Assembly (NCBI GenBank): GCA_963664585.2
Contig: CAXXEO010000015.1
Coordinates: 6,597 to 70,596 of the forward strand
From: Oscillospiraceae bacterium
Lineage (GTDB): Bacteria; Bacillota; Clostridia; Oscillospirales; Ruminococcaceae
Direction: 5' to 3'
DNA length: 64,000 bases
Positions 2,448 to 63,880 of the stretch are shown one piece after another. Numbering within the stretch: the stretch's first letter is position 1; the number at the start of each line of letters is the position of its first letter. The notes beneath the pieces are model-generated. The model searched no databases. It had not been told where the DNA came from and saw nothing but the letters and a program-made list of their open reading frames with translations. The position numbers and the translations under genes are program-made.

Positions 2448-2554
2448 TATAGCCAATTAACTTAAAAACTGGCTATATATATAACGTCATTTTCTTCCCC
2501 CGCCTTCGGCGGGGGAAGAAATCACAAGCTTGTTTTCAAATTAATCAACTATAT
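2448..2554 (+). repeat. F1 repeat copy, orientation A
   Basis: TATAGCCAATTAACTTAAAAACTGGCTATA...TTCTTCCCCCGCCTTCGGCGGGGGAAGAA...ACAAGCTTGT...TTAATCAACTATA, in a divergent intergenic region. Confidence 0.9.
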
Positions 2555-3252: not shown

Positions 3253-4155
3253 ATGGAAAGCTGGGAAAAGATAGTTGCCGTGCAGCATATGCAGGATTAT
3301 ATCGAAGAGCATATGACAGAAACGATCACCCTCTTAATGCTGGCAAGTGCCGCCGGGTATTCGCCTTGGCACAGTGCGAGGATCTTCAAAGAGATTACAG
3401 GCAAAGCACCATTTGAATACATCCGCACCTTGCGCTTGTCCCATGCGGCCGCTAAACTGCATGATGAGGATGTCAAGATTATTGATGTAGCATTTGACTT
3501 TGTCTTTGATTCGCACGAAGGCTTCACAAGAGCATTCTCGCGAGAGTTTGGCATGACTCCGAAATACTACAGCAAGAACACGCCGCTGTTAAAGCTCTTT
3601 CTTCCCAGCCATGCCCGTGATTATTACCTTACTCAGCAAAAAGGAGATGGCAAAATGGCAAAAGATCTTCATACTGTATTTGTTCAGGTGGTTGACCGTC
3701 CAGCAAGAAAGCTGATTTTAAAGCGCGGCATCAAAGCGGCACATTACTTTGAATTCTGTGAGGAAGTCGGCTGCGAAGTATGGGATGTCCTTTCTGGCAT
3801 TAAAGAAGCTCTATATGAGCCAATTGGCATGTGGTTGCCGGAAAGCTTAAAAAAGCCCGGCACGTCGGTGTACACACAGGGTGTAGAAGTAGCTGAAGAT
3901 TATTCTGGTAAAGTACCTGAGGGATATGAATTGGTTCATCTGGCACCGTGCAAGATGATGGTTTTTCAGGGCCCGCCCTATGACGATGAGAAATTCGAAG
4001 AGGCAATCAGCGAGCTTTGGGAAGTGATGAAAAGCTATAACCCCGTGCTTTATGGCTTTGAATGGGCCGATGAGGATGGACCTAGATTTCAACTTGCACC
4101 GATGGGATACCGGGGTTATATAGAAGCGAGACCGGTTCGTCAGTTGGGCAAATAA
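3253..4155 (+). CDS. AraC-family transcriptional regulator with GyrI-like effector-binding domain
   Basis: ORF 3223..4155. Start at ATG 3253 after GGAGGTGAG. AraC HTH (SPWHSARIFKEITGKAPFEYIRTLRL...GFTRAFSREFGMTP) followed by a ~150-aa C-terminal ligand-binding-type domain. Confidence 0.85.
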   Translation: MESWEKIVAVQHMQDYIEEHMTETITLLMLASAAGYSPWHSARIFKEITGKAPFEYIRTLRLSHAAAKLHDEDVKIIDVAFDFVFDSHEGFTRAFSREFGMTPKYYSKNTPLLKLFLPSHARDYYLTQQKGDGKMAKDLHTVFVQVVDRPARKLILKRGIKAAHYFEFCEEVGCEVWDVLSGIKEALYEPIGMWLPESLKKPGTSVYTQGVEVAEDYSGKVPEGYELVHLAPCKMMVFQGPPYDDEKFEEAISELWEVMKSYNPVLYGFEWADEDGPRFQLAPMGYRGYIEARPVRQLGK

Positions 4156-4258
4156 AGCCAATTAACTTAAAAACTGGGTATATATAAAACGTCATTTTCT
4201 TCCCCCGCCTTCGGCGGGGGAAGAAATCACAAGCTTGTTTTCAAATTAATCAACTATA
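4153..4258 (+). repeat. F1 repeat copy, orientation A
   Basis: Begins TAAAGCCAATTAAC (consensus TATAGCC...). Its first 3 nt are the TAA stop of the AraC gene. Confidence 0.9.
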
Positions 4259-5282: not shown

Positions 5283-5558
5283 ATGCGTTCGATTGCAACG
5301 TTTTTGGATGAAGCAGGAAAGATTAAGAAGCTCCCAGCAAAAAGAGAGCCCAGACGTGCTGTCTTAGAGTATCTTGCCACCAGGTTTTCCTGTGACAGGG
5401 ATTATACAGAAAAAGAAGTAAACGTAATCATTGACAGCTGGCACACCTTCGGCGATTATTTTGTACTGCGACGTGAACTGATCGAGCAGAAGTTCCTTTG
5501 CAGAACAAGAGATGGCTCACGATACTGGAAAGAGGAAGTTGCTGCTATAGCCAATTAA
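5283..5558 (+). CDS. DUF2087-like domain protein
   Basis: ORF 5265..5558, trimmed to ATG 5283 after AGGAGG. YTEKEVNVIIDSWHTFGDYFVLRRELIE resembles DUF2087. The last four codons (ATA GCC AAT TAA) are F1 repeat sequence. Confidence 0.55.
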   Translation: MRSIATFLDEAGKIKKLPAKREPRRAVLEYLATRFSCDRDYTEKEVNVIIDSWHTFGDYFVLRRELIEQKFLCRTRDGSRYWKEEVAAIAN

Positions 5559-5644
5559 CTTAAAAACTGGCTATATATAAAACGTCATTTTCTTCCCCCG
5601 CCTTCGGCGGTGGAAGAAATCACAAGCTTGTTTTCAAGTTAATC
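5546..5644 (+). repeat. F1 repeat copy, orientation A, split by IS30-family copy 1 (remaining 11 bp at 6698..6708)
   Basis: The F1 sequence runs to ...CAAGTTAATC, then the IS end GCTACATTG. AATCAACTATA resumes after the IS. Confidence 0.9.
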
Positions 5645-6697
5645 GCTACATTGTAAAATGAAATGCGACAGAAAAAAGATAGCCCAAGGCAGCCAAAACG
5701 TGTAGAATAGAGTTTGCAACAACAACATTCACACAAGGAGGCAGCCATGAGCCACCACCATTTTACAACATTCGAACGAGGAAAGATAGAGGAACTCCGT
5801 CAAATCGGATATACGACCCGGAAAATCGCATCACGTCTGGGATGTCACCACAGCAGTATCGCTAGAGAATTGAAACGTTTTTGCGGTGCCCGAGCGTATA
5901 ACGCAGAAGAAGCACAACTGGATTACCAGAAGAAACGGCACAACAGCAAACCTCAAGGGAAATGGAACGAGGAGTTGTGCGCAGCTGTGGCAGAAAAGCT
6001 GAAAGAGACCTGGTCGCCAGAACAAATATCACATACCGTTACTTCAAGCCAACTGAGCTTTAAAACCATATACAACTGGCTTTATGCCGGACGACTGAAC
6101 GGACTTACCGCAGATGTGCTGCGCCGTAATGGAAAAAAGAGAAGCTGTAAAAATCTTGCGCATTATGCTCGTGGTACTTCTATCCGCAAGAGACCCAAAG
6201 AGGTATATACCAGAGAAACATTTGGGCATTGGGAACTTGATACGGTGGTTTTCTCTAGGGGTTCCAGCGGTTGCTTGGCCACCTTTGTGGAATGAAAAAC
6301 AAGGTTCTATACAGCCGTTCCCATTCCTGATCGAACGGCAGCTTCCATGGAAGCTGCAATCAAGCACCTGCACACTTTATTGCCACAAGGCACATTCAAA
6401 ACAGCAACAACAGATCGTGGCGGTGAATTTGCCTGTTATGATGTAATCCAGAAAGATCTAGGCTTAACTCTTTATTTCGCTGATCCATATTGTCCGCATC
6501 AGAGAGGAAGCAATGAGTACGGTAACGGTTTGCTCAGAGAGTTCTTTCCGAAAGGTACTGTTCTGTCCACTGTTTCTCATCAAAACCTATCTTCTTCTCT
6601 TCTGCTTATAAACAACAGACCCCGAAAATGTCTTAATTGGAATACACCTTCCCAGCTCTTTCTACTCGAACTGTCGCATTTGGCTTGACAATGTAGC
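5645..6697 (+). mobile_element. IS30-family insertion sequence, copy 1 (1053 bp), transposase inactivated
   Basis: Inverted repeats GCTACATTGTAAAATGAAATGCGACAG and CTGTCGCATTTGGCTTGACAATGTAGC. AATC is duplicated on both flanks. Confidence 0.9.
5747..6688 (+). pseudogene. IS30-family transposase with a nonsense mutation
   Basis: TGA at 6293-6295 where copy 3 has CGA, splitting the ORF into 5714..6295 and 6347..6688. Confidence 0.85.
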
Positions 6698-6805
6698 AAT
6701 CAACTATAGTGCTGACGCTGATCATTCGGAGAATTGACTTAGCCTGATGCATTTTAAATCCCGCCGGTTTACCGCTATTTTGGAACGCCTTTCGACATAG
6801 AAACA

Positions 6806-6860: not shown

Positions 6861-8300
6861 CTAGTTATTTTGATGGTAGAATTCCAGATACCGCTGATAA
6901 CGGCGTTGGTATTTTTCCCGGTTTTCCGGATGAGGGGCAATGATAAACTCTTGCCCGTTATCGAATTCCTCCAGATGTGAGATTTCGCCCATGGCAAGCA
7001 TTCCCAAACCGGCGGCTCCTAACAAAGAAGCCTGCTCATTATCGGAGACTTTCATTTCCTTTTGAAAAATATCTGCCAGCATTTGCAGCCATACGGGAGA
7101 TCTTACAATGCCGCCCGACACCTTGATCGCCTTAGGGATCGCATTTTCTTTGATAAGAACCTCATAGCACTGGAACAAATTGAACAAAACGCCTTCCAGA
7201 ATGCTGCCGTAAAGGTCACCTACAGTATGGGTGTTTTTGAGTTCTTTAAATCCGCCTAAACGCTTATCATCCCAGCCGGGGCTTCTTTCACCAAAAAGAA
7301 ACGGCAGAAAGATCGGCAGATCGTGATCATCCCGGGTGATCATTTCGTCCAGCTGGCGCAGGGAATAAGCATTTGCCATCACGCGGCCCGCAAACCACTC
7401 AAGACAGTTCGTGCTTCCTGAGGTTGCGGCCCCTACCAACCACTTTCCGGGTGCAAAATAACACCAAAGGCTTGGGACATCGGACATATAAGGACGGTCA
7501 TAAGCAACACGCAAAGCACCGCTGGTTCCTACGGAAAGGGTCATGATCCCATTTTTTAAAGCACCGCTCCCCACCTGATTCAGGGCGCCATCCGGATGCG
7601 CAGAAAGAACGGGGATGTCTTCTCTCACGCCCAGAAGCTGTGCGTACTGCGCAAGAAGCGGCTGCGTATAGGTATGGTCAACGAGTTTAGGCAGATTGCT
7701 TTTTTGCGTTTCTGTTATTTCAAGAGCATTTTGGTCCCAGTCAAGGGTATGTATGTTTAAAAGACCGGTTCCCGATGCGTTTGAAATGGATTGTGCCACA
7801 TCCCCCGTCAATTTGGAAAAAATATAACTTCCCTGATCTATAATCATATCCCCGGGCAAAATCTGAAGGCCGCTTTTCTTCAGATGTATCAGCTTAAATA
7901 ATGGATACATTGCATGAACCATGCCGCCGGTACTGTGATAATGCCGTATCGCCCAGTCGGTATCCCTTCGAAGCTCTTCTGCCTCGGCATAGGCTCCGGT
8001 GTAGGCCCATGTAAACGCACGTGTTTTGGGAATGAGATTTTGATCCACTACAAGAAGGTTATGCCAAGTACACGAGATACTGATACAGTCAATCGGATTA
8101 TCGCATATAAGCTCCCGGCCCACCTTCAGGATATATTCGAACACCTGATCAGCATCCTGACTAACAACATCGCTGCAAGACTCATCATAAGGAATCGTCC
8201 TTGTTTTGACGGGGCCGCTTAAACTGTTATAGATCATCGCTTTCGCAGAAGAAGTACTGGCCTCCAATATGAGTATATTCAAACTTAAAATCACTCCCAT
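6861..8300 (-). CDS. FGGY-family carbohydrate kinase (gluconokinase-like)
   Basis: 479 aa. FGGY features include FLPFLFGERSPGWD and GGIVRSPVWLQMLADIF. The N-terminal phosphate-1 motif is diverged (LILEASTSSAKA). Confidence 0.7.
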   Translation of the reverse strand: MGVILSLNILILEASTSSAKAMIYNSLSGPVKTRTIPYDESCSDVVSQDADQVFEYILKVGRELICDNPIDCISISCTWHNLLVVDQNLIPKTRAFTWAYTGAYAEAEELRRDTDWAIRHYHSTGGMVHAMYPLFKLIHLKKSGLQILPGDMIIDQGSYIFSKLTGDVAQSISNASGTGLLNIHTLDWDQNALEITETQKSNLPKLVDHTYTQPLLAQYAQLLGVREDIPVLSAHPDGALNQVGSGALKNGIMTLSVGTSGALRVAYDRPYMSDVPSLWCYFAPGKWLVGAATSGSTNCLEWFAGRVMANAYSLRQLDEMITRDDHDLPIFLPFLFGERSPGWDDKRLGGFKELKNTHTVGDLYGSILEGVLFNLFQCYEVLIKENAIPKAIKVSGGIVRSPVWLQMLADIFQKEMKVSDNEQASLLGAAGLGMLAMGEISHLEEFDNGQEFIIAPHPENREKYQRRYQRYLEFYHQNN

Positions 8301-8452
8301 ATCAATCTATACGATTAGTTCGTTTTTATTGAATTTTTCATCTTAAAGCCTTTTAAAAGCAAAGAATCATCCGATTTAAACAGCATAACCTGAAGCCATT
8401 TATCAAACAAAGTAAAGGTTGGCCTTTAAAGATATTGCTTCTATAGTTGATT

Positions 8453-9504
8453 GCTACATTGTAAAATGAAATGCGACAGAAAAAAGATAGCCCAAGGCAG
8501 CCAAAACGTGTAGAATAGAGTTTGCAACAACAACATTCACACAAGGAGGCAGCCATGAGCCACCACCATTTTACAACATTCGAACGAGGAAAGATAGAGG
8601 AACTCCGTCAAATCGGATATACGACCCGGAAAATCGCATCACGTCTGGGATGTCACACAGCAGTATCGCTAGAGAATTGAAACGTTTTTACGGTGCCCGA
8701 GCGTATAACGCAGAAGAAGCACAACTGGATTACCAGAAGAAACGGCACAACAGCAAACCTCAAGGGAAATGGAACGAGGAGTTGTGCGCAGTTGTGGCAG
8801 AAAAGCTGAAAGAGACCTGGTCGCCAGAACAAATATCACATACCGTTACTTCAAGCCAACTGAGCTTTAAAACAATATACAACTGGCTTTATGCCGGACG
8901 ACTGAACGGACTCACCGCAGATGTGCTGCGCCGTAATGGAAAAAAGAGAAGCTGTAAAAATCTTGCGCATTATGCTCGTGGTACTTCTATCCGCAAGAGA
9001 CCGAAAGAGGTATATACCAGAGAAACATTTGGGCATTGGGAACTTGATACGGTGGTTTCCTCTAGGGGTTCCAGTAGTTGCTTGGCCACCTTTGTGGAAC
9101 GAAAAACAAGGTTCTATACAGCCGTTCCCATTCCTGATCGAACGGCAGCTTCCATGGAAGCTGCAATCAAGCACCTGCACACTTTATTGCCACAAGGCAC
9201 ATTCAAAACAGCAACAACAGATCGTGGCGGTGAATTTGCCTGTTATGATGTAATCCAGAAAGATCTAGGCTTAACTCTTTATTTCGCTGATCCATATTGT
9301 CCGCGTCAGAGAGGAAGCAATGAGTACGGTAACGGTTTGCTCAGAGAGTTCTTTCCGAAAGGTACTGTTCTGTCAACTGTTTCTCATCAAAACCTGTCTT
9401 CTTCTCTTCTGCTTATAAACAATAGACCCCGAAAATGTCTTAATTGGAATACACCTTCCCAGCTCTTTCTACTCGAACTGTCGCATTTGGCTTGACAATG
9501 TAGC
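8453..9504 (+). mobile_element. IS30-family insertion sequence, copy 2 (1052 bp), transposase frameshifted
   Basis: Same inverted repeats as copy 1. Flanked by TATAGTTGATT and GATTAACTTG, so it sits inside an orientation-B F1 copy with GATT duplicated. Confidence 0.9.
8555..9495 (+). pseudogene. IS30-family transposase with a 1-nt deletion
   Basis: GATGTCACACAGC near 8656 versus GATGTCACCACAGC in copies 1 and 3. Only the 281-aa ORF 8650..9495 remains open. Confidence 0.85.
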
Positions 9505-9603
9505 GATTAACTTGAAAACAAGCTTGTGATTTCTTCCCCCGCCGAAGGCGGGGGAAGAAAATGACGTTTTAACTATAGCCAGTTTTTAAGTTAATTGGCT
9601 ATA
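9505..9603 (-). repeat. F1 repeat copy, orientation B, split by IS copy 2 (other 11 bp at 8442..8452)
   Basis: GATTAACTTGAAAACAAGCTTGTGATTTCTTCCCCCGCCGAAGGCGGGGGAAGAAAATGACG...TTAATTGGCTATA. The loop reads GAA on the top strand. Confidence 0.9.
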
Positions 9604-9674: not shown

Positions 9675-10955
9675 CTATTCCTTGCCCCAGAAGCTTTCAT
9701 GCTCCGCCCAAAGGCCAACAGCTGGATTAGATATATAAAACACCTCTTCCGAGTCGATGGTATTAAACCCATCCTTCATACTATGGATTGGGTATTTCTC
9801 CATCGCCTCTTCCAAAGACATATAGTGATAGTTGATGCCTTCAATTTCTTCCCTTGTCATATGGCCTGGAGCATAGGTAATCGTAAATCTGTCATCAGAG
9901 GAAGAATGGATGATGTGTGCCGCAACAGAAAGACTCTTTTGCAAATCCTCATTTTCCTGCGTCAGACGACAAATTCTATCCCGGCCCACATAGCCGTATT
10001 TTCGGATCAGCCTGTCGTTTTCTTTGTCCTCCCCGCAACCGCACAGACCCGGGGCAATGATAACCAGCTCTCCGCCGTCCTCTATACACATTCTGGTGCG
10101 GTAAATCGCCTTATTACCGATCCAGGTTCTTTTAAACTCTTTTTCATGCAGATAGACAATCACCTTTTTAAGTCTTTTGTCCAAAAAGGTAAGATTCTTT
10201 TGCTGGCTTATGGCAATGGCTTTTTCAAAGGTGTCTCTGTTTTCACCGATCGAAAGACATTCTACCTGAGGCTCCAAGCCTTTTACTGTAGTAACAGTGA
10301 GCATATAAAGGATGGGTACATTTTGCAAAAAATGCTCCAAAGCATAATCAAACAGTTTATGCACCGGAGTGTGGTCGCGGCCCATCATTTTTTCCATACC
10401 GTACAGCGCTCCGATATAATGGCTGGCATTGATCATCCCACTGCCGCCGCAGCCCACAAAAATATTCTTGTTATAGTTCGCCATGCCCACCACCTCGTGG
10501 GGCACTACCTGACCGACCGAAATAATGATGTCATAGCTTTTATCAAGAACGCGCTTGTTAATTTCAACGGGAACCGCTTCGCAGAAATAGCCGGCACTGA
10601 TTTCCTTGACAAATTCCGCCGGCACCTCTCCTATCTTGATGGTATCAGTCTTCCAGTTGTGTACTAAAAAACGATCATGTGGAATGGATGTATACATTTC
10701 ATCCAGCTCTTCTTCACTCATGGGCACATGGGTACCTAAGGCTGGCAGAATATCCACCTGAGCATTTTTGTCGGTCAAATACCGGTACAGCATCCGGGTG
10801 ATGGGGCCCGCATAGGAATTGGAACGTGACATATCGGGCGGAATAATCAGTGCTTTTTTAATATCCCTGTTTGCGAGTGCGTTTAATATGGCTTCATTAA
10901 TCTGCTCGTCACTGATCGGAAAGTCCTGTTTTGCATAAAGGCACAGATTACCCAT
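9675..10955 (-). CDS. LarA-like (DUF2088) nickel-dependent hydroxyacid racemase/epimerase family protein
   Basis: 426 aa with overall LarA-type organisation (...GQVVPHEVVGMANYNKNIFVGCGG...). Specificity is unknown. Confidence 0.65.
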   Translation of the reverse strand: MGNLCLYAKQDFPISDEQINEAILNALANRDIKKALIIPPDMSRSNSYAGPITRMLYRYLTDKNAQVDILPALGTHVPMSEEELDEMYTSIPHDRFLVHNWKTDTIKIGEVPAEFVKEISAGYFCEAVPVEINKRVLDKSYDIIISVGQVVPHEVVGMANYNKNIFVGCGGSGMINASHYIGALYGMEKMMGRDHTPVHKLFDYALEHFLQNVPILYMLTVTTVKGLEPQVECLSIGENRDTFEKAIAISQQKNLTFLDKRLKKVIVYLHEKEFKRTWIGNKAIYRTRMCIEDGGELVIIAPGLCGCGEDKENDRLIRKYGYVGRDRICRLTQENEDLQKSLSVAAHIIHSSSDDRFTITYAPGHMTREEIEGINYHYMSLEEAMEKYPIHSMKDGFNTIDSEEVFYISNPAVGLWAEHESFWGKE

Positions 10956-17250: not shown

Positions 17251-17356
17251 TATAGCCAATTAACTTGAAAATTGGCTATAGATAAAACGTCATTTTCTTC
17301 CCCCGCCTTCGGCGGGGGAAGAAATCACAAGCTTGTTTTCAAATGAATCAACTATA
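17251..17356 (+). repeat. F1 repeat copy, orientation A
   Basis: Variant with an 11-bp first stem, TATAGCCAATT AACTTGAAA AATTGGCTATA. Core loop TTC. Confidence 0.9.
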
Positions 17357-18210: not shown

Positions 18211-19383
18211 TTAATGATGAAACAATCTGACTCTGGTGAATGCCATCGCAATGTTATATTTGTCACAGGTTCCAATCACATGATCATCGCGAATTGACCC
18301 GCCTGTTTGTGCGATGAATTCGACACCGCTTCTATGCGCACGTTCAATATTATCACCGAAAGGGAAGAAAGCGTCGGACCCCAATGATACTCCCATAAAT
18401 GTATCCAACCATCTTCTTTTTTCTTCATAGGTAAATGGGTCGGGTCTTTTTGTAAAAATTTCTTCCCAACAGCCATCCGAAAGAATTTGTGCGCTATCAA
18501 CGGAGAGGTAACCATCAATCGCATTGTCCCGTTCTGGACGTTGGATGCTTTCTTTAAAAGGGAGGTTTAGCACCTTGGGATTTTGGCGCAAATACCATTG
18601 ATCCGATTTATCCCCTGCCAGGCGAGTGCAATGAATTCTTGATTGCTGTCCGGCTCCAATCCCTATTGCCTGACTGTCTTTTACATAACATACAGAATTT
18701 GATTGTGTATATTTCAGGGTGAGTAATGCGATGATGAGATCAGTTTTAGCGTCACTGGGAATCTCTTTGTTCAGGGTTGGAATTTCTTGCAGTAATTCTT
18801 CTGAAATCTTCACCTCATTTGTTCCCTGTTCAAATGTAATTCCAAAAACGTCCTTTTGTTCAACCAAATTCGGTTTGTAATTTTCGTCGATCTGGATAAT
18901 CGTGTAAAGCCCCTTGCGCTTCTTTTTTAAAATGTCGAGTGCTTTTTCTTCATACTCGGGAGCGACAATGCCATCCGAAACTTCCCTGGCAATGAGCGTT
19001 GCCGTGGACACGTCGCAAATATCGGATAAAGCGATAAAGTCTCCATATGAAGACATCCTGTCCGCACCTCTAGCTCTTGCGTAAGCCGATGCCTGCGCGG
19101 ATAGCTCCAAATCATCCACGAAATATATTTTTCTTAGCGTTTTACTCAAAGGCTTACCTATCGCTGCCCCCGCTGGGCTGACATGCTTAAAAGACGCAGC
19201 CGCAGTAAAACCCGTTGCCTGTTTTAGTTCCTTTACCAATTGCCAACCGTTAAAGGCATCTAAAAGATTGATATAGCCTGGATTTCCATTCAGAATCTTT
19301 ATCGGCACCTCGCCGGTTTTCATAAATATTCTCGCTGGCTTTTGATTGGGATTGCATCCATATTTTAGTTCCATTTCAGTCAT
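18211..19383 (-). CDS. AICAR transformylase-type protein (PurH formyltransferase domain only)
   Basis: 390 aa. The MELKYGCNPNQKPARIF start and GIGAGQQSRIHCTRLA are typical of the AICARFT domain. No IMP cyclohydrolase/MGS domain. Confidence 0.75.
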   Translation of the reverse strand: MTEMELKYGCNPNQKPARIFMKTGEVPIKILNGNPGYINLLDAFNGWQLVKELKQATGFTAAASFKHVSPAGAAIGKPLSKTLRKIYFVDDLELSAQASAYARARGADRMSSYGDFIALSDICDVSTATLIAREVSDGIVAPEYEEKALDILKKKRKGLYTIIQIDENYKPNLVEQKDVFGITFEQGTNEVKISEELLQEIPTLNKEIPSDAKTDLIIALLTLKYTQSNSVCYVKDSQAIGIGAGQQSRIHCTRLAGDKSDQWYLRQNPKVLNLPFKESIQRPERDNAIDGYLSVDSAQILSDGCWEEIFTKRPDPFTYEEKRRWLDTFMGVSLGSDAFFPFGDNIERAHRSGVEFIAQTGGSIRDDHVIGTCDKYNIAMAFTRVRLFHH

Positions 19384-19413: not shown

Positions 19414-19459
19414 TAAAAAAGCCAACTATCCGGGTTGTTTGCCCAGACGGTCGGCTTTT
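19414..19459 (-). terminator. intrinsic terminator candidate
   Basis: Minus strand: AAAAGCCGAC...GTTGGCTTTTTTATTG, downstream of the flavin reductase-like gene. Confidence 0.45.
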
Positions 19460-19773
19460 ATGTCATACTCCCTTGTGGTTATCCACATCCGTCAGTAATA
19501 TGACTCTTTATTTTAGTTTAAACTCAAAATGACTGATTGTCAATGTTAAGCTATACGAAAAGTCACTGCCCTTATCCAAGTTCCATTTAACACGAATCCC
19601 AATTTCAACAGCAATGATCCACCTCTGTTTCCCCCGCCTCCGGTGGCGAAACAGAGGGAATAATTAAGTGTGATTTAGAGAAGATTCAGTATGAACGATG
19701 TAGGAAATAGGGTGATGATAAAAGGGATGTACTTATCGATCTTCACAGCCTTGTTAATGGATTTTTGTTATTT

Positions 19774-22896: not shown

Positions 22897-23002
22897 TATA
22901 GTTGATTAACTTGAAAACAAGCTTGTGATTTCTTCCCCCGCCTTTGGCGGGGGAAGAAAATGACGTTTTATCTATAGCCAATTTTCAAGTTAATTGGCTA
23001 TA
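22897..23002 (-). repeat. F1 repeat copy, orientation B
   Basis: TATAGTTGATTAACTTGAAAACAAGCTTGTGATTTCTTCCCCCGCCTTTGGCGGGGG... The loop reads TTT on the top strand despite B orientation. Confidence 0.9.
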
Positions 23003-31180: not shown

Positions 31181-31286
31181 TATAGTTGATTAACTTGAAA
31201 ACAAGCTTGTGATTTCTTCCCCAGCCTTCGGCGGGGGAAGAAAATGACGTTTTATATATAGCCAGTTTTTAAGTTAATTGGCTATA
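31181..31286 (-). repeat. F1 repeat copy, orientation B
   Basis: Core CCCCAGCCTTCGGCGGGGG (loop TTC on the top strand). Its end abuts the TAA stop of the 31287 gene. Confidence 0.9.
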
Positions 31287-33319: not shown

Positions 33320-33423
33320 TATAGCCAATTAACTTAAAAACTGGCTATATATAACGTCATTTTCTTCCCCCGCTTTCGGCGGGGGAAGAAATCACAAGCT
33401 TGTTTTCAAGTTAATCAACTATA
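33320..33423 (+). repeat. F1 repeat copy, orientation A
   Basis: Core variant CCCCCGCTTTCGGCGGGGG. Confidence 0.9.
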
Positions 33424-36216: not shown

Positions 36217-36250
36217 TCTGGGATAGACATAAGCCTCTAAGCCAATGCTT

Positions 36251-36354
36251 AGAGTTGATTAACTTGAAAACAAGCTTGTGATTTCTTCCCCCACCTTCGG
36301 CGGGGGAAGAAAATGACGTTTTATTTATACCGGTTTTTAAGATAATTGGCTATA
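36251..36354 (-). repeat. F1 repeat copy, orientation B
   Basis: The terminus is AGAGTTGATT (not TATAG). Core CCCCCACCTTCGGCGGGGG, loop TTC on the top strand. Confidence 0.88.
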
Positions 36355-36456: not shown

Positions 36457-36562
36457 TATAGTTGATTAACTTGAAAACAAGCTTGTGATTTCTTCCCCCG
36501 CCGAAGGCGGGGGAAGAAAATGACGTTTTATATATAGCCAGTTTTTAAGTTAATTGGCTATA
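36457..36562 (-). repeat. F1 repeat copy, orientation B
   Basis: Near-consensus. The loop reads GAA on the top strand. It lies 102 bp from the previous copy. Confidence 0.9.
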
Positions 36563-37533: not shown

Positions 37534-37575
37534 TATAGTTGATTAACTTGAAAACAAGCTTGTTTTGCTTCTTCG
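37534..37575 (-). repeat. solo F1 terminal fragment (B-side TIR only)
   Basis: TATAGTTGATTAACTTGAAAACAAGCTTGT, then divergence. No GC core. Confidence 0.75.
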
Positions 37576-51259: not shown

Positions 51260-51365
51260 TATAGTTGATTAACTTGAAAACAAGCTTGCGATTTCTTCCC
51301 CCGCCGAAGGCGGGGGAAGAAAATGACGTTATATATATAGCCAGTTTTTAAGTTAATTGGCTATA
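51260..51365 (-). repeat. F1 repeat copy, orientation B
   Basis: Near-consensus. The loop reads GAA on the top strand. Confidence 0.9.
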
Positions 51366-60456: not shown

Positions 60457-60495
60457 AAAACAATCCTCTGCCGTGATGGCAGAGGATTGTTTTTA
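60457..60495 (+). terminator. intrinsic terminator of the second ABC/C26 operon
   Basis: AAAACAATCCTCTGCC-GTGA-GGCAGAGGATTGTTTTT. The F1 terminus starts inside the T-run. Confidence 0.85.
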
Positions 60496-60504
60496 TAGTT
60501 GATT

Positions 60505-61557
60505 GCTACATTGTAAAATGAAATGCGACAGAAAAAAGATAGCCCAAGGCAGCCAAAACGTGTAGAATAGAGTTTGCAACAACAACATTCACACAAGGAG
60601 GCAGCCATGAGCCACCACCATTTTACAACATTCGAACGAGGAAAGATAGAGGAACTCCGTCAAATCGGATATACGACCCGGAAAATCGCATCACGTCTGG
60701 GATGTCACCACAGCAGTATTGCTAGAGAATTGAAACGTTTTTACGGTGCCCGAGCGTATAACGCAGAAGAAGCACAACTGGATTACCAGAAGAAACGGCA
60801 CAACAGCAAACCTCAAGGGAAATGGAACGAGGAGTTGTGCGCAGCTGTGGCAGAAAAGCTGAAAGAGACCTGGTCGCCAGAACAAATATCACATACCGTT
60901 ACTTCAAGCCAACTGAGCTTTAAAACAATATACAACTGGCTTTATGCCGGACGACTGAACGGACTCACCGCAGATGTGCTGCGCCGTAATGGAAAAAAGA
61001 GAAGCTGTAAAAATCTTGCGCATTATGCTCGTGGTACTTCTATCCACAAGAGACCCAAAGAGGTATATACCAGAGAAACATTTGGGCATTGGGAACTTGA
61101 TACGGTGGTTTTCTCTAGGGGTTCCAGCGGTTGCTTGGCCACCTTTGTGGAACGAAAAACAAGGTTCTATACAGCCGTTCCCATTCCTGATCGAACGGCA
61201 GCTTCCATGGAAGCTGCAATCAAGCACCTGCACACTTTATTGCCACAAGGCACATTCAAAACAGCAACAACAGATCGTGGCGGTGAATTTGCCTGTTATG
61301 ATGTAATCCAGAAAGATCTAGGCTTAACTCTTTATTTCGCTGATCCATATTGTCCGCATCAGAGAGGAAGCAATGAGTACGGTAACGGTTTGCTCAGAGA
61401 GTTCTTTCCGAAAGGTACTGTTCTGTCCACTGTTTCTCATCAAAACCTGTCTTCTTCTCTTCTGCTTATAAACAATAGACCCCGAAAATGTCTTAATTGG
61501 AATACACCTTCCCAGCTCTTTCTACTCGAACTGTCGCATTTGGCTTGACAATGTAGC
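60505..61557 (+). mobile_element. IS30-family insertion sequence, copy 3 (1053 bp), intact
   Basis: Same 27-bp inverted repeats. Flanked by TATAGTTGATT and GATTCACTTG (GATT duplicated), inside an orientation-B F1 copy. Confidence 0.92.
60607..61548 (+). CDS. IS30-family transposase (313 aa from ATG behind AAGGAGG)
   Basis: N-terminal HTH (FERGKIEELRQIGYTTRKIASRLGCHHSSIAREL). DDE region WELDTV ... TDRGGEF ... PHQRGSNEYGNGLLREFFPKG. Confidence 0.92.
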   Translation: MSHHHFTTFERGKIEELRQIGYTTRKIASRLGCHHSSIARELKRFYGARAYNAEEAQLDYQKKRHNSKPQGKWNEELCAAVAEKLKETWSPEQISHTVTSSQLSFKTIYNWLYAGRLNGLTADVLRRNGKKRSCKNLAHYARGTSIHKRPKEVYTRETFGHWELDTVVFSRGSSGCLATFVERKTRFYTAVPIPDRTAASMEAAIKHLHTLLPQGTFKTATTDRGGEFACYDVIQKDLGLTLYFADPYCPHQRGSNEYGNGLLREFFPKGTVLSTVSHQNLSSSLLLINNRPRKCLNWNTPSQLFLLELSHLA

Positions 61558-61656
61558 GATTCACTTGAAAACAAGCTTGTATTTTCTTCCCTCGCCTTCG
61601 GCGGGGGAAGAAAATGACGTTTTATATATAGCCAGTTTTTAAGTGAATTGGCTATA
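61558..61656 (-). repeat. F1 repeat copy, orientation B, split by IS copy 3 (other 11 bp at 60494..60504)
   Basis: GATTCACTTGAAAACAAGCTTGTATTTTCTTCCCTCGCCTTCGGCGGGGGAAGAAAATGACG...GAATTGGCTATA. Loop TTC on the top strand. Confidence 0.9.
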
Positions 61657-61674: not shown

Positions 61675-62613
61675 CTATTTTGACTTTTTAGCAACATAAG
61701 AAGTTAACATAGGAACACATATTGCCGTAACCACAACTGCCGCTGCAATTTGTGCCGTAGCCACGGCAACATACGGTTGCATCGTCTTGTCCAGTAAAGC
61801 GACTGCTGCCGGGGTTGCGACTGCATTTCCAGCAGCACTCGAAACTGCGGCGGCCGCATAGCCTGGTCTTCTATTAATCGATTTATCTACTAATATGAGT
61901 GGAATACCCCCTATTGCCATGACTAAAATGCCTAGGAGAACACCACTATAACCGGCTTTCATCACATTTGTAAAGTTTATGCCGGCACCTAAAGCAAATG
62001 CAAAGCAAGGGATCATAATATCAATTCCAGGCTTAAAGAGTATTCTTATATCGTCATCCAGATTTCCTAGAATGATTCCAACTATCAATGGACCTATAGC
62101 GCCCAATAAACTTATGACAGGAATATCAGCCATACCTGATGCTCCTAGCGCGAGCAAAGTTAAAAAAGGACCGTCTTTAATGTTAAGTACGCTTAAGGCG
62201 CCAATATCTATAGGATCACCATACTCCGAAACCAGGGCGGCATATAAACCGCCATTACCGCTTGTCATAGCGCTGACTAGGGCTAGCACAGAAATCCCGA
62301 AAATCCCTTCCATCCCAAATCGTTTAGCAACCAGCAGTGCAAACCCAGCCCCGATTAAAAACTTAGCAATTACTAATACGGCTCCCCTTTTCAATGCTTC
62401 AGGAGCCTCCTTAAATTTTAACTGGCTTCCGACAAACATTAAAAATACGCCTACTAAAGCAGCTGAGCCTTTGCTTGAAAATACTGCTGTTGTAAAGGAT
62501 CCTATTTCAAGAAGTGCAGGGCAAAAGGTATTGAATGCAGCACCTATTAACAAAGGAACAACCATCAATCCCCCAGGTATTTTCTTTACCCGCGATAAAA
62601 TTTTCAAATTCAT
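61675..62613 (-). CDS. kdgT: 2-keto-3-deoxygluconate permease family transporter
   Basis: KKIPGGLMVVPLLIGAAFNTFCP N-terminus. 312 aa, polytopic. Confidence 0.8.
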   Translation of the reverse strand: MNLKILSRVKKIPGGLMVVPLLIGAAFNTFCPALLEIGSFTTAVFSSKGSAALVGVFLMFVGSQLKFKEAPEALKRGAVLVIAKFLIGAGFALLVAKRFGMEGIFGISVLALVSAMTSGNGGLYAALVSEYGDPIDIGALSVLNIKDGPFLTLLALGASGMADIPVISLLGAIGPLIVGIILGNLDDDIRILFKPGIDIMIPCFAFALGAGINFTNVMKAGYSGVLLGILVMAIGGIPLILVDKSINRRPGYAAAAVSSAAGNAVATPAAVALLDKTMQPYVAVATAQIAAAVVVTAICVPMLTSYVAKKSK

Positions 62614-62670: not shown

Positions 62671-62776
62671 TATAGTTGATTAACTTGAAAACAAGCTTAT
62701 GATTTCTTCCCCCGCCTTCGGCGGGGGAAGAAAATGGAGTTTTATATATAGCCAGTTTTTAAGTTAATTGGCTATA
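62671..62776 (-). repeat. F1 repeat copy, orientation B, fused to an F2 copy
   Basis: Consensus core with TTC on the top strand. It ends GGCTATA, immediately followed by GTACAATGCAAC. Confidence 0.9.
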
Positions 62777-63774: not shown

Positions 63775-63880
63775 TATAGCCAATTAACTTAAAAACTGGC
63801 TATATATAAAACGTCATTTTCTTCCCCCGCCTTCGGCGGGGGAAGAAATCACAAGCTTGTTTTCAAGTTAATCAACTATA
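63775..63880 (+). repeat. F1 repeat copy, orientation A (consensus-like, 106 bp)
   Basis: The full consensus can be read directly here. Confidence 0.92.

Follow-up and report, generated by a model that had tools for sequence, protein, structure and literature searches.

A candidate target specificity of an IS30-family insertion sequence for one position of a dispersed repeat

The insertion sequence and the F1 repeat

We analysed a stretch of 64,000 nucleotides of DNA from an Oscillospiraceae bacterium (assembly GCA_963664585.2, contig CAXXEO010000015.1, positions 6,597 to 70,596 of the forward strand), referred to below as the window (42.9% G+C). It holds three copies of one insertion sequence (IS) of the IS30 family, one intact and two inactivated, and 14 copies of a dispersed repeat, F1; each of the three IS copies splits an F1 repeat, and all three do so at the same nucleotide. 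The features are collected in Table 1. Copy 1 is inactivated by a nonsense change at codon 183 (CGA to TGA, 6293-6295) and copy 2 by a 1-nt deletion near 8657 (codon 35), which leads to a stop at codon 42. The 27-nt ends are identical in all three copies (GCTACATTGTAAAATGAAATGCGACAG and ...CTGTCGCATTTGGCTTGACAATGTAGC), and the left and right inverted repeats agree at 23/27 positions.

The first-pass annotation of this DNA had assigned the element to the IS30 family. Indeed, the transposase of copy 3 contains the Pfam domains HTH_38 (9e-12) and rve (4e-8) and scores 270 bits against NCBIfam NF033563 (transpos_IS30), for which the cut-off is 80. D165, D223 and E257 are invariant across 29 relatives, and 33 residues separate D223 from E257; the ISfinder description of the IS30 family likewise has a D, D, E set with 33 residues from the second D to the E. 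With its 1053 bp and 27-bp repeats, the element falls within the family's dimensions (a single open reading frame (ORF), ~1.0-1.25 kb, imperfect inverted repeats of 20-30 bp). The target duplication of the family is 2-3 bp, as against 4 bp in 4/4 copies of this IS (the fourth copy is described below). We treat the longer duplication as variation of a subgroup within the family and as no ground for exclusion; the element is thus a member of the IS30 family whose duplication length is a variant one and whose class of target is new.

F1 is a repeat of ~106 bp (104-106 bp), of which 11 copies in the window are intact and three are split by the IS; one 30-bp fragment is also present. It runs from TATAGTTGATTAACTTGAAAAC through a G+C-rich hairpin to GTTTTTAAGTTAATTGGCTATA, with terminal inverted repeats of 22 bp and TA at both ends, and a long hairpin results when one strand is folded (-27.8 kcal/mol, z = -9.7). 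The mean identity among all intact copies is 94%. The copies are intergenic and flanked by ordinary genes. No family in Rfam covered F1 in our search, and when we looked for an autonomous parent, that is, F1-type ends around a transposase gene, inverted F1 pairs were found to enclose ordinary genes only. The loop of the central hairpin occurs both ways round among the copies (GCCGAAGGC versus GCCTTCGGC) with the stem kept, for example in 22897-23002 versus 36457-36562.

Table 1. Positions of the IS copies, F1 repeats and neighbouring genes in the window
Feature	Positions	Strand	Remarks
IS copy 1	5645-6697	+	1053 bp; pseudogene; orientation relative to F1 opposite to copies 2 and 3
IS copy 2	8453-9504	+	1052 bp; pseudogene
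IS copy 3	60505-61557	+	1053 bp; sole intact copy in the window
Left inverted repeat, copy 3	60505-60531	+	GCTACATTGTAAAATGAAATGCGACAG; holds -10-like TAAAAT, 60514-60519
Right inverted repeat, copy 3	61531-61557	+	...CTGTCGCATTTGGCTTGACAATGTAGC; holds -35-like TTGACA, 61545-61550
Transposase gene, copy 3	60607-61548	+	313 aa; HTH_38 + rve; stop codon within right inverted repeat
Host F1 of copy 1, inner part	5546-5644	-	AATC duplication copy 5641-5644
Host F1 of copy 1, outer 11 bp	6698-6708	-	AATCAACTATA on plus strand; second AATC 6698-6701
Host F1 of copy 2, outer 11 bp	8442-8452	+	TATAGTTGATT; duplication copy 8449-8452
Host F1 of copy 2, rest	9505-9603	+	second GATT 9505-9508
Host F1 of copy 3, outer 11 bp	60494-60504	+	TATAGTTGATT; GATT duplication copy 60501-60504
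Host F1 of copy 3, rest	61558-61656	+	second GATT 61558-61561, then hairpin and right terminal repeat ...AATTGGCTATA
Intact F1	22897-23002	+	empty AGTTGATTAACT
Intact F1	31181-31286	+	exact empty AGTTGATTAACT
Intact F1	33320-33423	-	exact empty AGTTGATTAACT
Intact F1	36250-36354	+	exact empty AGTTGATTAACT
Intact F1	36457-36562	+	exact empty AGTTGATTAACT
Intact F1	51260-51365	+	exact empty AGTTGATTAACT
Intact F1	62671-62776	+	exact empty AGTTGATTAACT
Intact F1	63775-63880	-	exact empty AGTTGATTAACT
Intact F1	2448-2553	-	variant unoccupied site GATTAATT
Intact F1	4153-4258	-	variant unoccupied site GATTAATT
Intact F1	17251-17356	-	variant site GATTCATT, unoccupied
Truncated F1	37534-37563	+	first 30 nt left; empty AGTTGATTAACT retained
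Sugar-acid utilisation gene	6861-8300	-	near IS/F1 sites
Sugar-acid utilisation gene	9675-10955	-	near IS/F1 sites
Sugar-acid utilisation gene	61675-62613	-	near IS/F1 sites
AICAR formyltransferase gene (purH-like)	18211-19383	-	NCBIfam PRK07106, 698 bits

One insertion site in F1 and in related repeats

The junctions read CAAGTTAATC/IS/AATCAACTATA in copy 1 (at 5644/5645 and 6697/6698), TATAGTTGATT/IS/GATTAACTTG in copy 2 (at 8452/8453 and 9504/9505) and TATAGTTGATT/IS/GATTCACTTG in copy 3 (at 60504/60505 and 61557/61558). Each IS splits F1 at TATAGTTGATT^AACTT and has the 4-bp GATT on both sides. In intact F1 the site is TAT-AGTT-GATT-AACT-TGA and lies in the left terminal inverted repeat. 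The outer F1 fragment adjoins the left IS end in copies 2 and 3, and the arrangement is reversed in copy 1. The base next to the IS tip is not the same in the two orientations, so that the tips (GCTAC...GTAGC) and the duplication of exactly 4 bp (GATT/AATC) can be assigned without ambiguity. The host F1 of copy 3 carries GATTCACT, consistent with a free position 5. All this bears out the first-pass annotation, which had placed the three junctions within a terminal palindrome of F1 and reported the use of one site with a 4-bp target duplication, both IS orientations relative to F1, and at least nine further unoccupied sites: coordinates and sequences agree, the duplication is present in 3/3 window copies, and the empty site AGTTGATTAACT occurs nine times in the window, every time in F1, against a chance expectation of 0.01. 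The chance that the second and the third insertion would each strike the same F1 position is ~2e-4 (14 F1 copies, 64,000 positions), and coincidence is a negligible explanation of the shared position.

A fourth copy was found outside the window. The closest database transposase (P0001, 97% identical) is encoded on an independent 40.7-kb metagenome contig in ENA (L015) with different neighbours, and there too the IS sits at this F1 position, flanked by an AATC duplication. All four readable copies thus lie at TATAGTTGATT^AACTT with the GATT/AATC duplication, each orientation being represented twice. Identity is 98.6-99.2% among the IS copies (n=4) and 89.6-99.1% among their host F1 copies, a spread as wide as that among F1 copies generally. 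The much closer similarity of the IS copies indicates independent insertions and not the spread of one composite. Beyond F1, the DNA at the three window sites is unrelated. Segmental duplication is ruled out; the first-pass annotation had preferred targeted insertion to it, a reading that the differing flanks, the higher identity of the IS and the fourth copy at the same site all favour.

About 900 bp from the fourth copy, the same contig carries a Y1 (IS200/IS605-type) transposase gene (L015 3867-4325, minus strand), for which we found no link to F1. The idea that F1 itself is an element of the RAYT/REP type (REP, repetitive extragenic palindromic) was dropped, as F1 has true terminal inverted repeats and no such link was found.

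We then compared the flanks of related elements. A metagenome scan gave 80 loci with transposases 48-81% identical, to which exact look-ups added relatives at 78-81%. The conserved end cores, ATTGTAAAATGAAGTGCGACA and its counterpart at the right end, served to anchor each locus, and the flanks were read outward from the IS tip. We used single flanks, and not flank pairs, as evidence, because flank pairs on short contigs may be chimeras or inversions. The relatives with transposases 62-85% identical form one clade. At identities of 62% or more, ACT stands at outward positions 6-8 in 30/35 flanks; every flank has T at position 8 (35/35), 33/35 have C at position 7 and 31/35 have A at position 11. 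The clade thus has the palindromic hot-spot target of the IS30 family, in the form of a symmetric AGTn-NNNN-nACT. With the window and fourth copies excluded and the new loci added, 29/37 flanks read NNNN-nACT (35/37 if GCT is allowed), and the ten added flanks, from relatives at 78-81%, have either ACT or GCT in every case. In relatives at 60% identity or less (48-60%), ACT is found at those positions in 1/104 flanks, the others being AT-rich with A-runs; 4 bp is the commonest duplication length in this group (17/45 exact, none longer). In a neighbour-joining tree, 19/19 transposases with F1-type flanks fall into one clade of 23 members, outside which 0/56 are F1-type (other flanks in 55, no flank data for one).

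The flanks within the clade are of two types: NNNN-nACT-ATA..., with CTATA exactly 6 nt from the tip, and NNNN-nACT-TGAAAA.... Judged by its sequence, the CTATA type is the outer end of an F1-like repeat and the TGAAAA type the repeat interior. Where the inner flank is long enough, it runs on for ~150 nt to a matching distal repeat, ...TTTCAAGTn-N6-CTATA (L018, L025, L031 and L102), and the F1-like repeats at these four loci are 165-167 bp long. Among individual loci, L100 is a perfect clean insertion, TTATAGTTGATT^AACTTCGG with an AATC/GATT duplication; L101 has the same IS in the opposite orientation; and L027 is a clean single insertion with the 4-bp duplication GATC. The first-pass annotation had proposed checking the flanks of this IS in related genomes, and there diverged relatives interrupt diverged F1-like repeats at this very point. 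From these flanks, target specificity appears to be a trait of the whole transposase clade (62-100% identity), and each member apparently occupies the corresponding point in the F1-like repeat of its particular host.

At residues 131, 137, 174, 226, 251 and 258, the F1-targeting clade differs from the AT-rich-targeting relatives. Specific to the clade are K131, L137, G226 (after D223), H251 and Y258 (after E257), giving the contrasts TDRGGEF versus ..K.. and NEY versus NEN.

The three IS copies disrupt no gene. Around the IS/F1 sites are genes of sugar-acid utilisation, which encode a nickel-dependent enzyme, putatively a hexonate epimerase (607 bits), a sugar kinase of the FGGY family and a transporter of the KdgT type. 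The 90%-identity cluster of the window transposase has 36 distinct members, and the source genome probably holds dozens of copies of this IS. Elsewhere in the window, a ZMP/ZTP riboswitch (Rfam RF01750, 56 bits; 19434-19509, minus strand) lies upstream of the stand-alone AICAR formyltransferase gene. The first-pass annotation had called the genome Firmicute-like, and a Firmicute host is borne out by the purH-like protein: after a protein on a 184,346-bp NCBI/ENA contig, to which it is 100% identical, the next match is 89% identical and comes from Desulfosporosinus sp. Tol-M (Desulfitobacteriaceae, Clostridia).

Target choice and alternative explanations

Our preferred interpretation, to which we give a probability of about 0.8 on the comparisons above, is that this IS30-family element picks its target by sequence and shares with its clade a specificity for the site in the F1 terminal repeat. 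The transpososome would recognise the two-fold symmetric AGTn-NNNN-nACT, together with A-rich or TATA sequence further out, and would cut the two strands 4 bp apart, a stagger implied by the 4-bp duplication that it would leave. Every F1 copy would be a hot spot, because its left terminal inverted repeat carries a perfect symmetric site, and either orientation of the IS would be possible because that site is symmetric. The element presumably moves by the route of its family, which is copy-out-paste-in by way of a circular or dimeric intermediate whose ends abut (PMC9333248, PMC10916398). All relatives conserve two hexamers near the IS tips, TTGACA at 7 nt from the right one and TAAAAT at 9 nt from the left one; given these positions, a junction of abutted ends would create a promoter whose spacer measures 16 nt plus the length of the junction. 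Insertions would be cheap for the host because F1 is intergenic and multicopy, and at such a low cost the IS may stay where it landed and degenerate there; of the three copies in the window, two have become pseudogenes. What the sequences show directly is the anatomy, the site, the independent origin of the insertions and the pattern across the clade, whereas we infer the circle intermediate, the protein surface that reads the target and the low fitness cost.

Several points weigh against this interpretation. Just four copies of this exact IS are readable. The clade-specific residues lie beside the catalytic residues, with none in the first 45 residues or the first helix-turn-helix, and the comparison that identified them is confounded by phylogeny. 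In addition, many relatives are on short metagenome contigs where the paired flanks form no direct duplication; in L016, L030, L096 and L103, outer/outer or inner/inner flank pairs show reverse-complement 'duplications'. Such mismatched pairs reflect either chimeric assembly across a multicopy IS or inversion between oppositely oriented copies. Finally, the window taken alone leaves a preference for F1 over a short motif unproven: bare AGT-N6-ACT has 19 empty occurrences there, nine within F1 and ten outside, and because of those ten the window is insufficient ((12/22)^3 = 0.16). As a separate observation on short contigs, L098 (a whole contig of 1208 bp) has two IS left ends facing each other across ~75 bp of repeat sequence, again either a chimera of assembly or a product of IS-mediated inversion.

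It is possible, though we hold it to be the less probable outcome, that the transposase reads only a short palindrome of ~12-22 bp (TnnAGTn-NNNN-nACTnnA), F1-like repeats being merely its commonest carriers and neither the repeat nor its hairpin or cruciform being recognised. The conserved flank positions are indeed symmetric and short, and IS30 itself accepts synthetic palindromic hot spots (PMC9333248). The 18-bp form TnnAGT-N6-ACTnnA has ten empty matches in the window, and nine of them fall in F1. At four loci (L021, L022, L030 and L096), TATAG-type sequence is found on both sides of the IS, as expected for a free-standing TATAGTC-NNNN-GACTATA, although such outer/outer contigs may be chimeras. 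Some relatives tolerate GCT in place of ACT. However, nearly every relative flank goes on beyond the minimal motif, either into CTATA 6 nt from the tip or into the repeat interior (...ACTTGAAAA), and the very stable F1 hairpin may make a structural contribution. The right terminal repeat of F1 (AGCCAATTAACT) is occupied in 0/4 cases, which is weak evidence (P ~0.06).

Far less probable is the spread of a single ancestral F1::IS composite (~1163 bp), moved by the mobiliser of F1 or by segmental duplication, so that the shared position would reflect common descent. Such a composite is bounded by intact F1 terminal repeats and could in principle move like F1, and the host F1 repeats of copy 2 and the fourth copy are 99.1% identical, the most alike of all pairs. 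Yet precisely these two carry the IS in opposite orientations, whereas copies 2 and 3, which share the orientation and whose IS are 99.05% identical, have host F1 repeats only 90.6% identical. The unrelated DNA beyond F1, and the diverged relatives at the same point of diverged repeats, again in both orientations, argue in the same direction. The composite is thus largely refuted, and its spread, on these comparisons, very unlikely.

Still less credible is near-random insertion in which only copies in harmless intergenic repeats survive. The intergenic location of F1 and the decay of two of three IS copies would both fit neutral residence, but survivorship predicts scatter along F1 and intergenic DNA, and what is seen is the same phosphodiester position with a 4-bp duplication in 4/4 copies and the conserved ACT in the flanks of relatives. 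The weakest alternative, in which F1 would have arisen by deletion from a longer element, made up of F1 ends and the IS30 gene, and the 'duplication' would be a microhomology where the interior was lost, can point to the exact restoration of F1 when the IS and one GATT are taken out, but is refuted by the presence of the IS both ways round within F1, and is further opposed by the IS having its own 27-bp inverted repeats at the junctions, common to relatives without F1 association, by the lack of relationship between F1 ends and IS ends in direct comparison, and by the ratio of 11 intact to three occupied F1 copies together with the younger age of the IS copies.

Comparison with known mobile elements

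Like IS30, IS1655 and ISApl1, the element encodes one transposase, which combines an N-terminal HTH_38 with a DDE core, and has ~27-bp inverted repeats and a length of ~1.05 kb. Its two ends seem to hold promoter halves, as in studied IS30-family elements, which would fit a circle with abutted ends. It differs in the duplication, which is 4 bp instead of the 2 bp of IS30 and ISApl1 (PMC9333248, PMC10916398). The IS30 family inserts into nearly palindromic hot spots or beside its own ends (PMC9333248), and the first-pass annotation was right on the former. The element shares the preference with IS30 itself, but its hot spot is AGTn-NNNN-nACT in the terminal repeat of another mobile repeat, and not an AT-rich or GC-centred palindrome. 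Insertion beside sequence that resembles the IS ends was considered as well and rejected, as the F1 terminal repeat matches the IS ends at 11/27 positions by eye and the geometry is wrong. For IS1655, the target duplication is reportedly 3 bp.

Part of the IS is also found at the ends of prophages. Scanning genome contigs with the 25-nt IS left end gave 14 loci, none of which contains this IS: 13 are prophage-type ends and one is a lone end (L003). The 13 are Lachnospiraceae/Clostridia genomes (L001, L002, L004-L014) with an exact 26-nt IS left end (for example L009 4352-4377, minus strand), followed in order by a conserved hairpin, an ORF of ~60 aa and phage-like genes. The ORF is 44-46% identical to transposase residues 10-57, that is, to the helix-turn-helix only, and has no catalytic domain. 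In this the loci fit the IS30-bound 'IScream' prophages of gut Clostridia (PMC12247996), which have a truncated, 'phage-facing' IS30 end; 26 nt of the prophage-type end are identical to the left inverted repeat of the window IS. IScream prophages are on the 10-kb scale and inserted in AT-rich DNA, not in F1; the window element is a plain IS. The lone end (L003 3206-3380) is a 26-nt IS left end without a transposase gene, and an F1-like distal motif, ...CTTTTCAAGTTGGTCGA(CTATA), follows after ~150 nt. Searches with blastn against plasmids and phages returned only distant Paenibacillus IS30 elements, and scans of viral contigs with the IS end and with the F1 terminal repeat gave no match.

The ends of F1 resemble those of the Correia elements of Neisseria. 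The outer terminal repeat of Correia, TATAGTGGATTAAC, matches TATAGTTGATTAAC of F1 (for example 36457-36562) at 13/14 positions; both repeats are intergenic and multicopy with TA at each end, and the 104-106 bp of F1 fall into the shorter of the two Correia size classes (104-108 and 153-157 bp), the relatives' repeats of 165-167 bp being near, but not equal to, the longer one. There are also differences. The inner 12 nt of the terminal repeats disagree (CTTGAAAAC versus AAAAACCGG or ATTTAAACC), the terminal inverted repeats are 26 bp versus 22 bp, the cores are unrelated, and the hosts belong to different phyla (Neisseria only versus a Firmicute). Correia elements duplicate a TA target; F1 has TA at both ends, with a duplication unproven. 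We know of no IS30-family insertion at the corresponding point of Correia (TATAGTGGATT^AAC). Tentatively, the IS30 clade may have long co-diversified with a widespread superfamily of Correia-like miniature repeats (TATAG-N6-nACTTGAAAA; classes of 106 bp and ~166 bp), each IS lineage parasitising the terminal repeat of its own host at the same nucleotide, with the 4-bp stagger and the target perhaps set by G226, H251 and Y258 and not by the helix-turn-helix.

If our interpretation is correct, the IS30 family and the Firmicutes would join the short list of insertion sequences homing to one position of a dispersed repeat, and the homing would be inherited across a clade instead of being a peculiarity of a single element. 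The clade would then offer a compact natural system for studying changes of target and cut spacing in a DDE transposase (a 313-aa enzyme, a symmetric site of 12-22 bp and a 4-bp stagger, with the AT-rich-targeting sister clade as a built-in comparison), of relevance to engineered site-directed insertion. In annotation, copies of the IS would mark F1-type repeats, and mismatched flanks would mark IS-mediated inversions or assembly errors. If the shared plan of the terminal repeats means a shared mobilising enzyme, the Firmicute repeats could also help to identify the mover of Correia.

IS1397 and ISKpn1 are among the insertion sequences that target REP sequences or bacterial interspersed mosaic elements (BIMEs). 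As the first-pass annotation correctly said, repeat-targeting IS elements are known from the REPs of Gram-negative bacteria; they belong to the IS3, IS110, IS4, IS5 and IS256 families and not to IS30, and IS1655, the IS30-family element of Neisseria, has only a 15-33% association with repeats (PMC1525189). ISPsy8, ISPa11, ISPpu9, ISPpu10, ISRm19 and ISRm22 likewise occupy a fixed position in a dispersed palindromic extragenic repeat (PMC1525189; for ISPpu9 in REPs see also PMC12288879). Where all copies of an element in a genome lie at one fixed position of a repeat, Tobes and Pareja (2006; PMC1525189) speak of a 'type 1 association'; among the readable copies of the window IS, 4/4 share the repeat position. 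In our literature searches, no earlier account came up of an IS30-family element that homes to a repeat like a miniature inverted-repeat transposable element (MITE), nor of the F1 repeat. Unlike the REP/BIME-targeting elements, which are of the IS3, IS110 and IS4 families and live in Proteobacteria, the window IS is of the IS30 family and lives in Clostridia; in place of a REP hairpin it targets a terminal inverted repeat, that of the 106-bp, MITE-like F1, and IS110-type elements use a different (DEDD) chemistry. Insertion at a fixed position of a repeat is thus already known in other IS families, and the case of the IS30 family in a Firmicute, with a 4-bp duplication, is new: the window IS works like the REP-targeting elements, yet belongs to none of the cases described.

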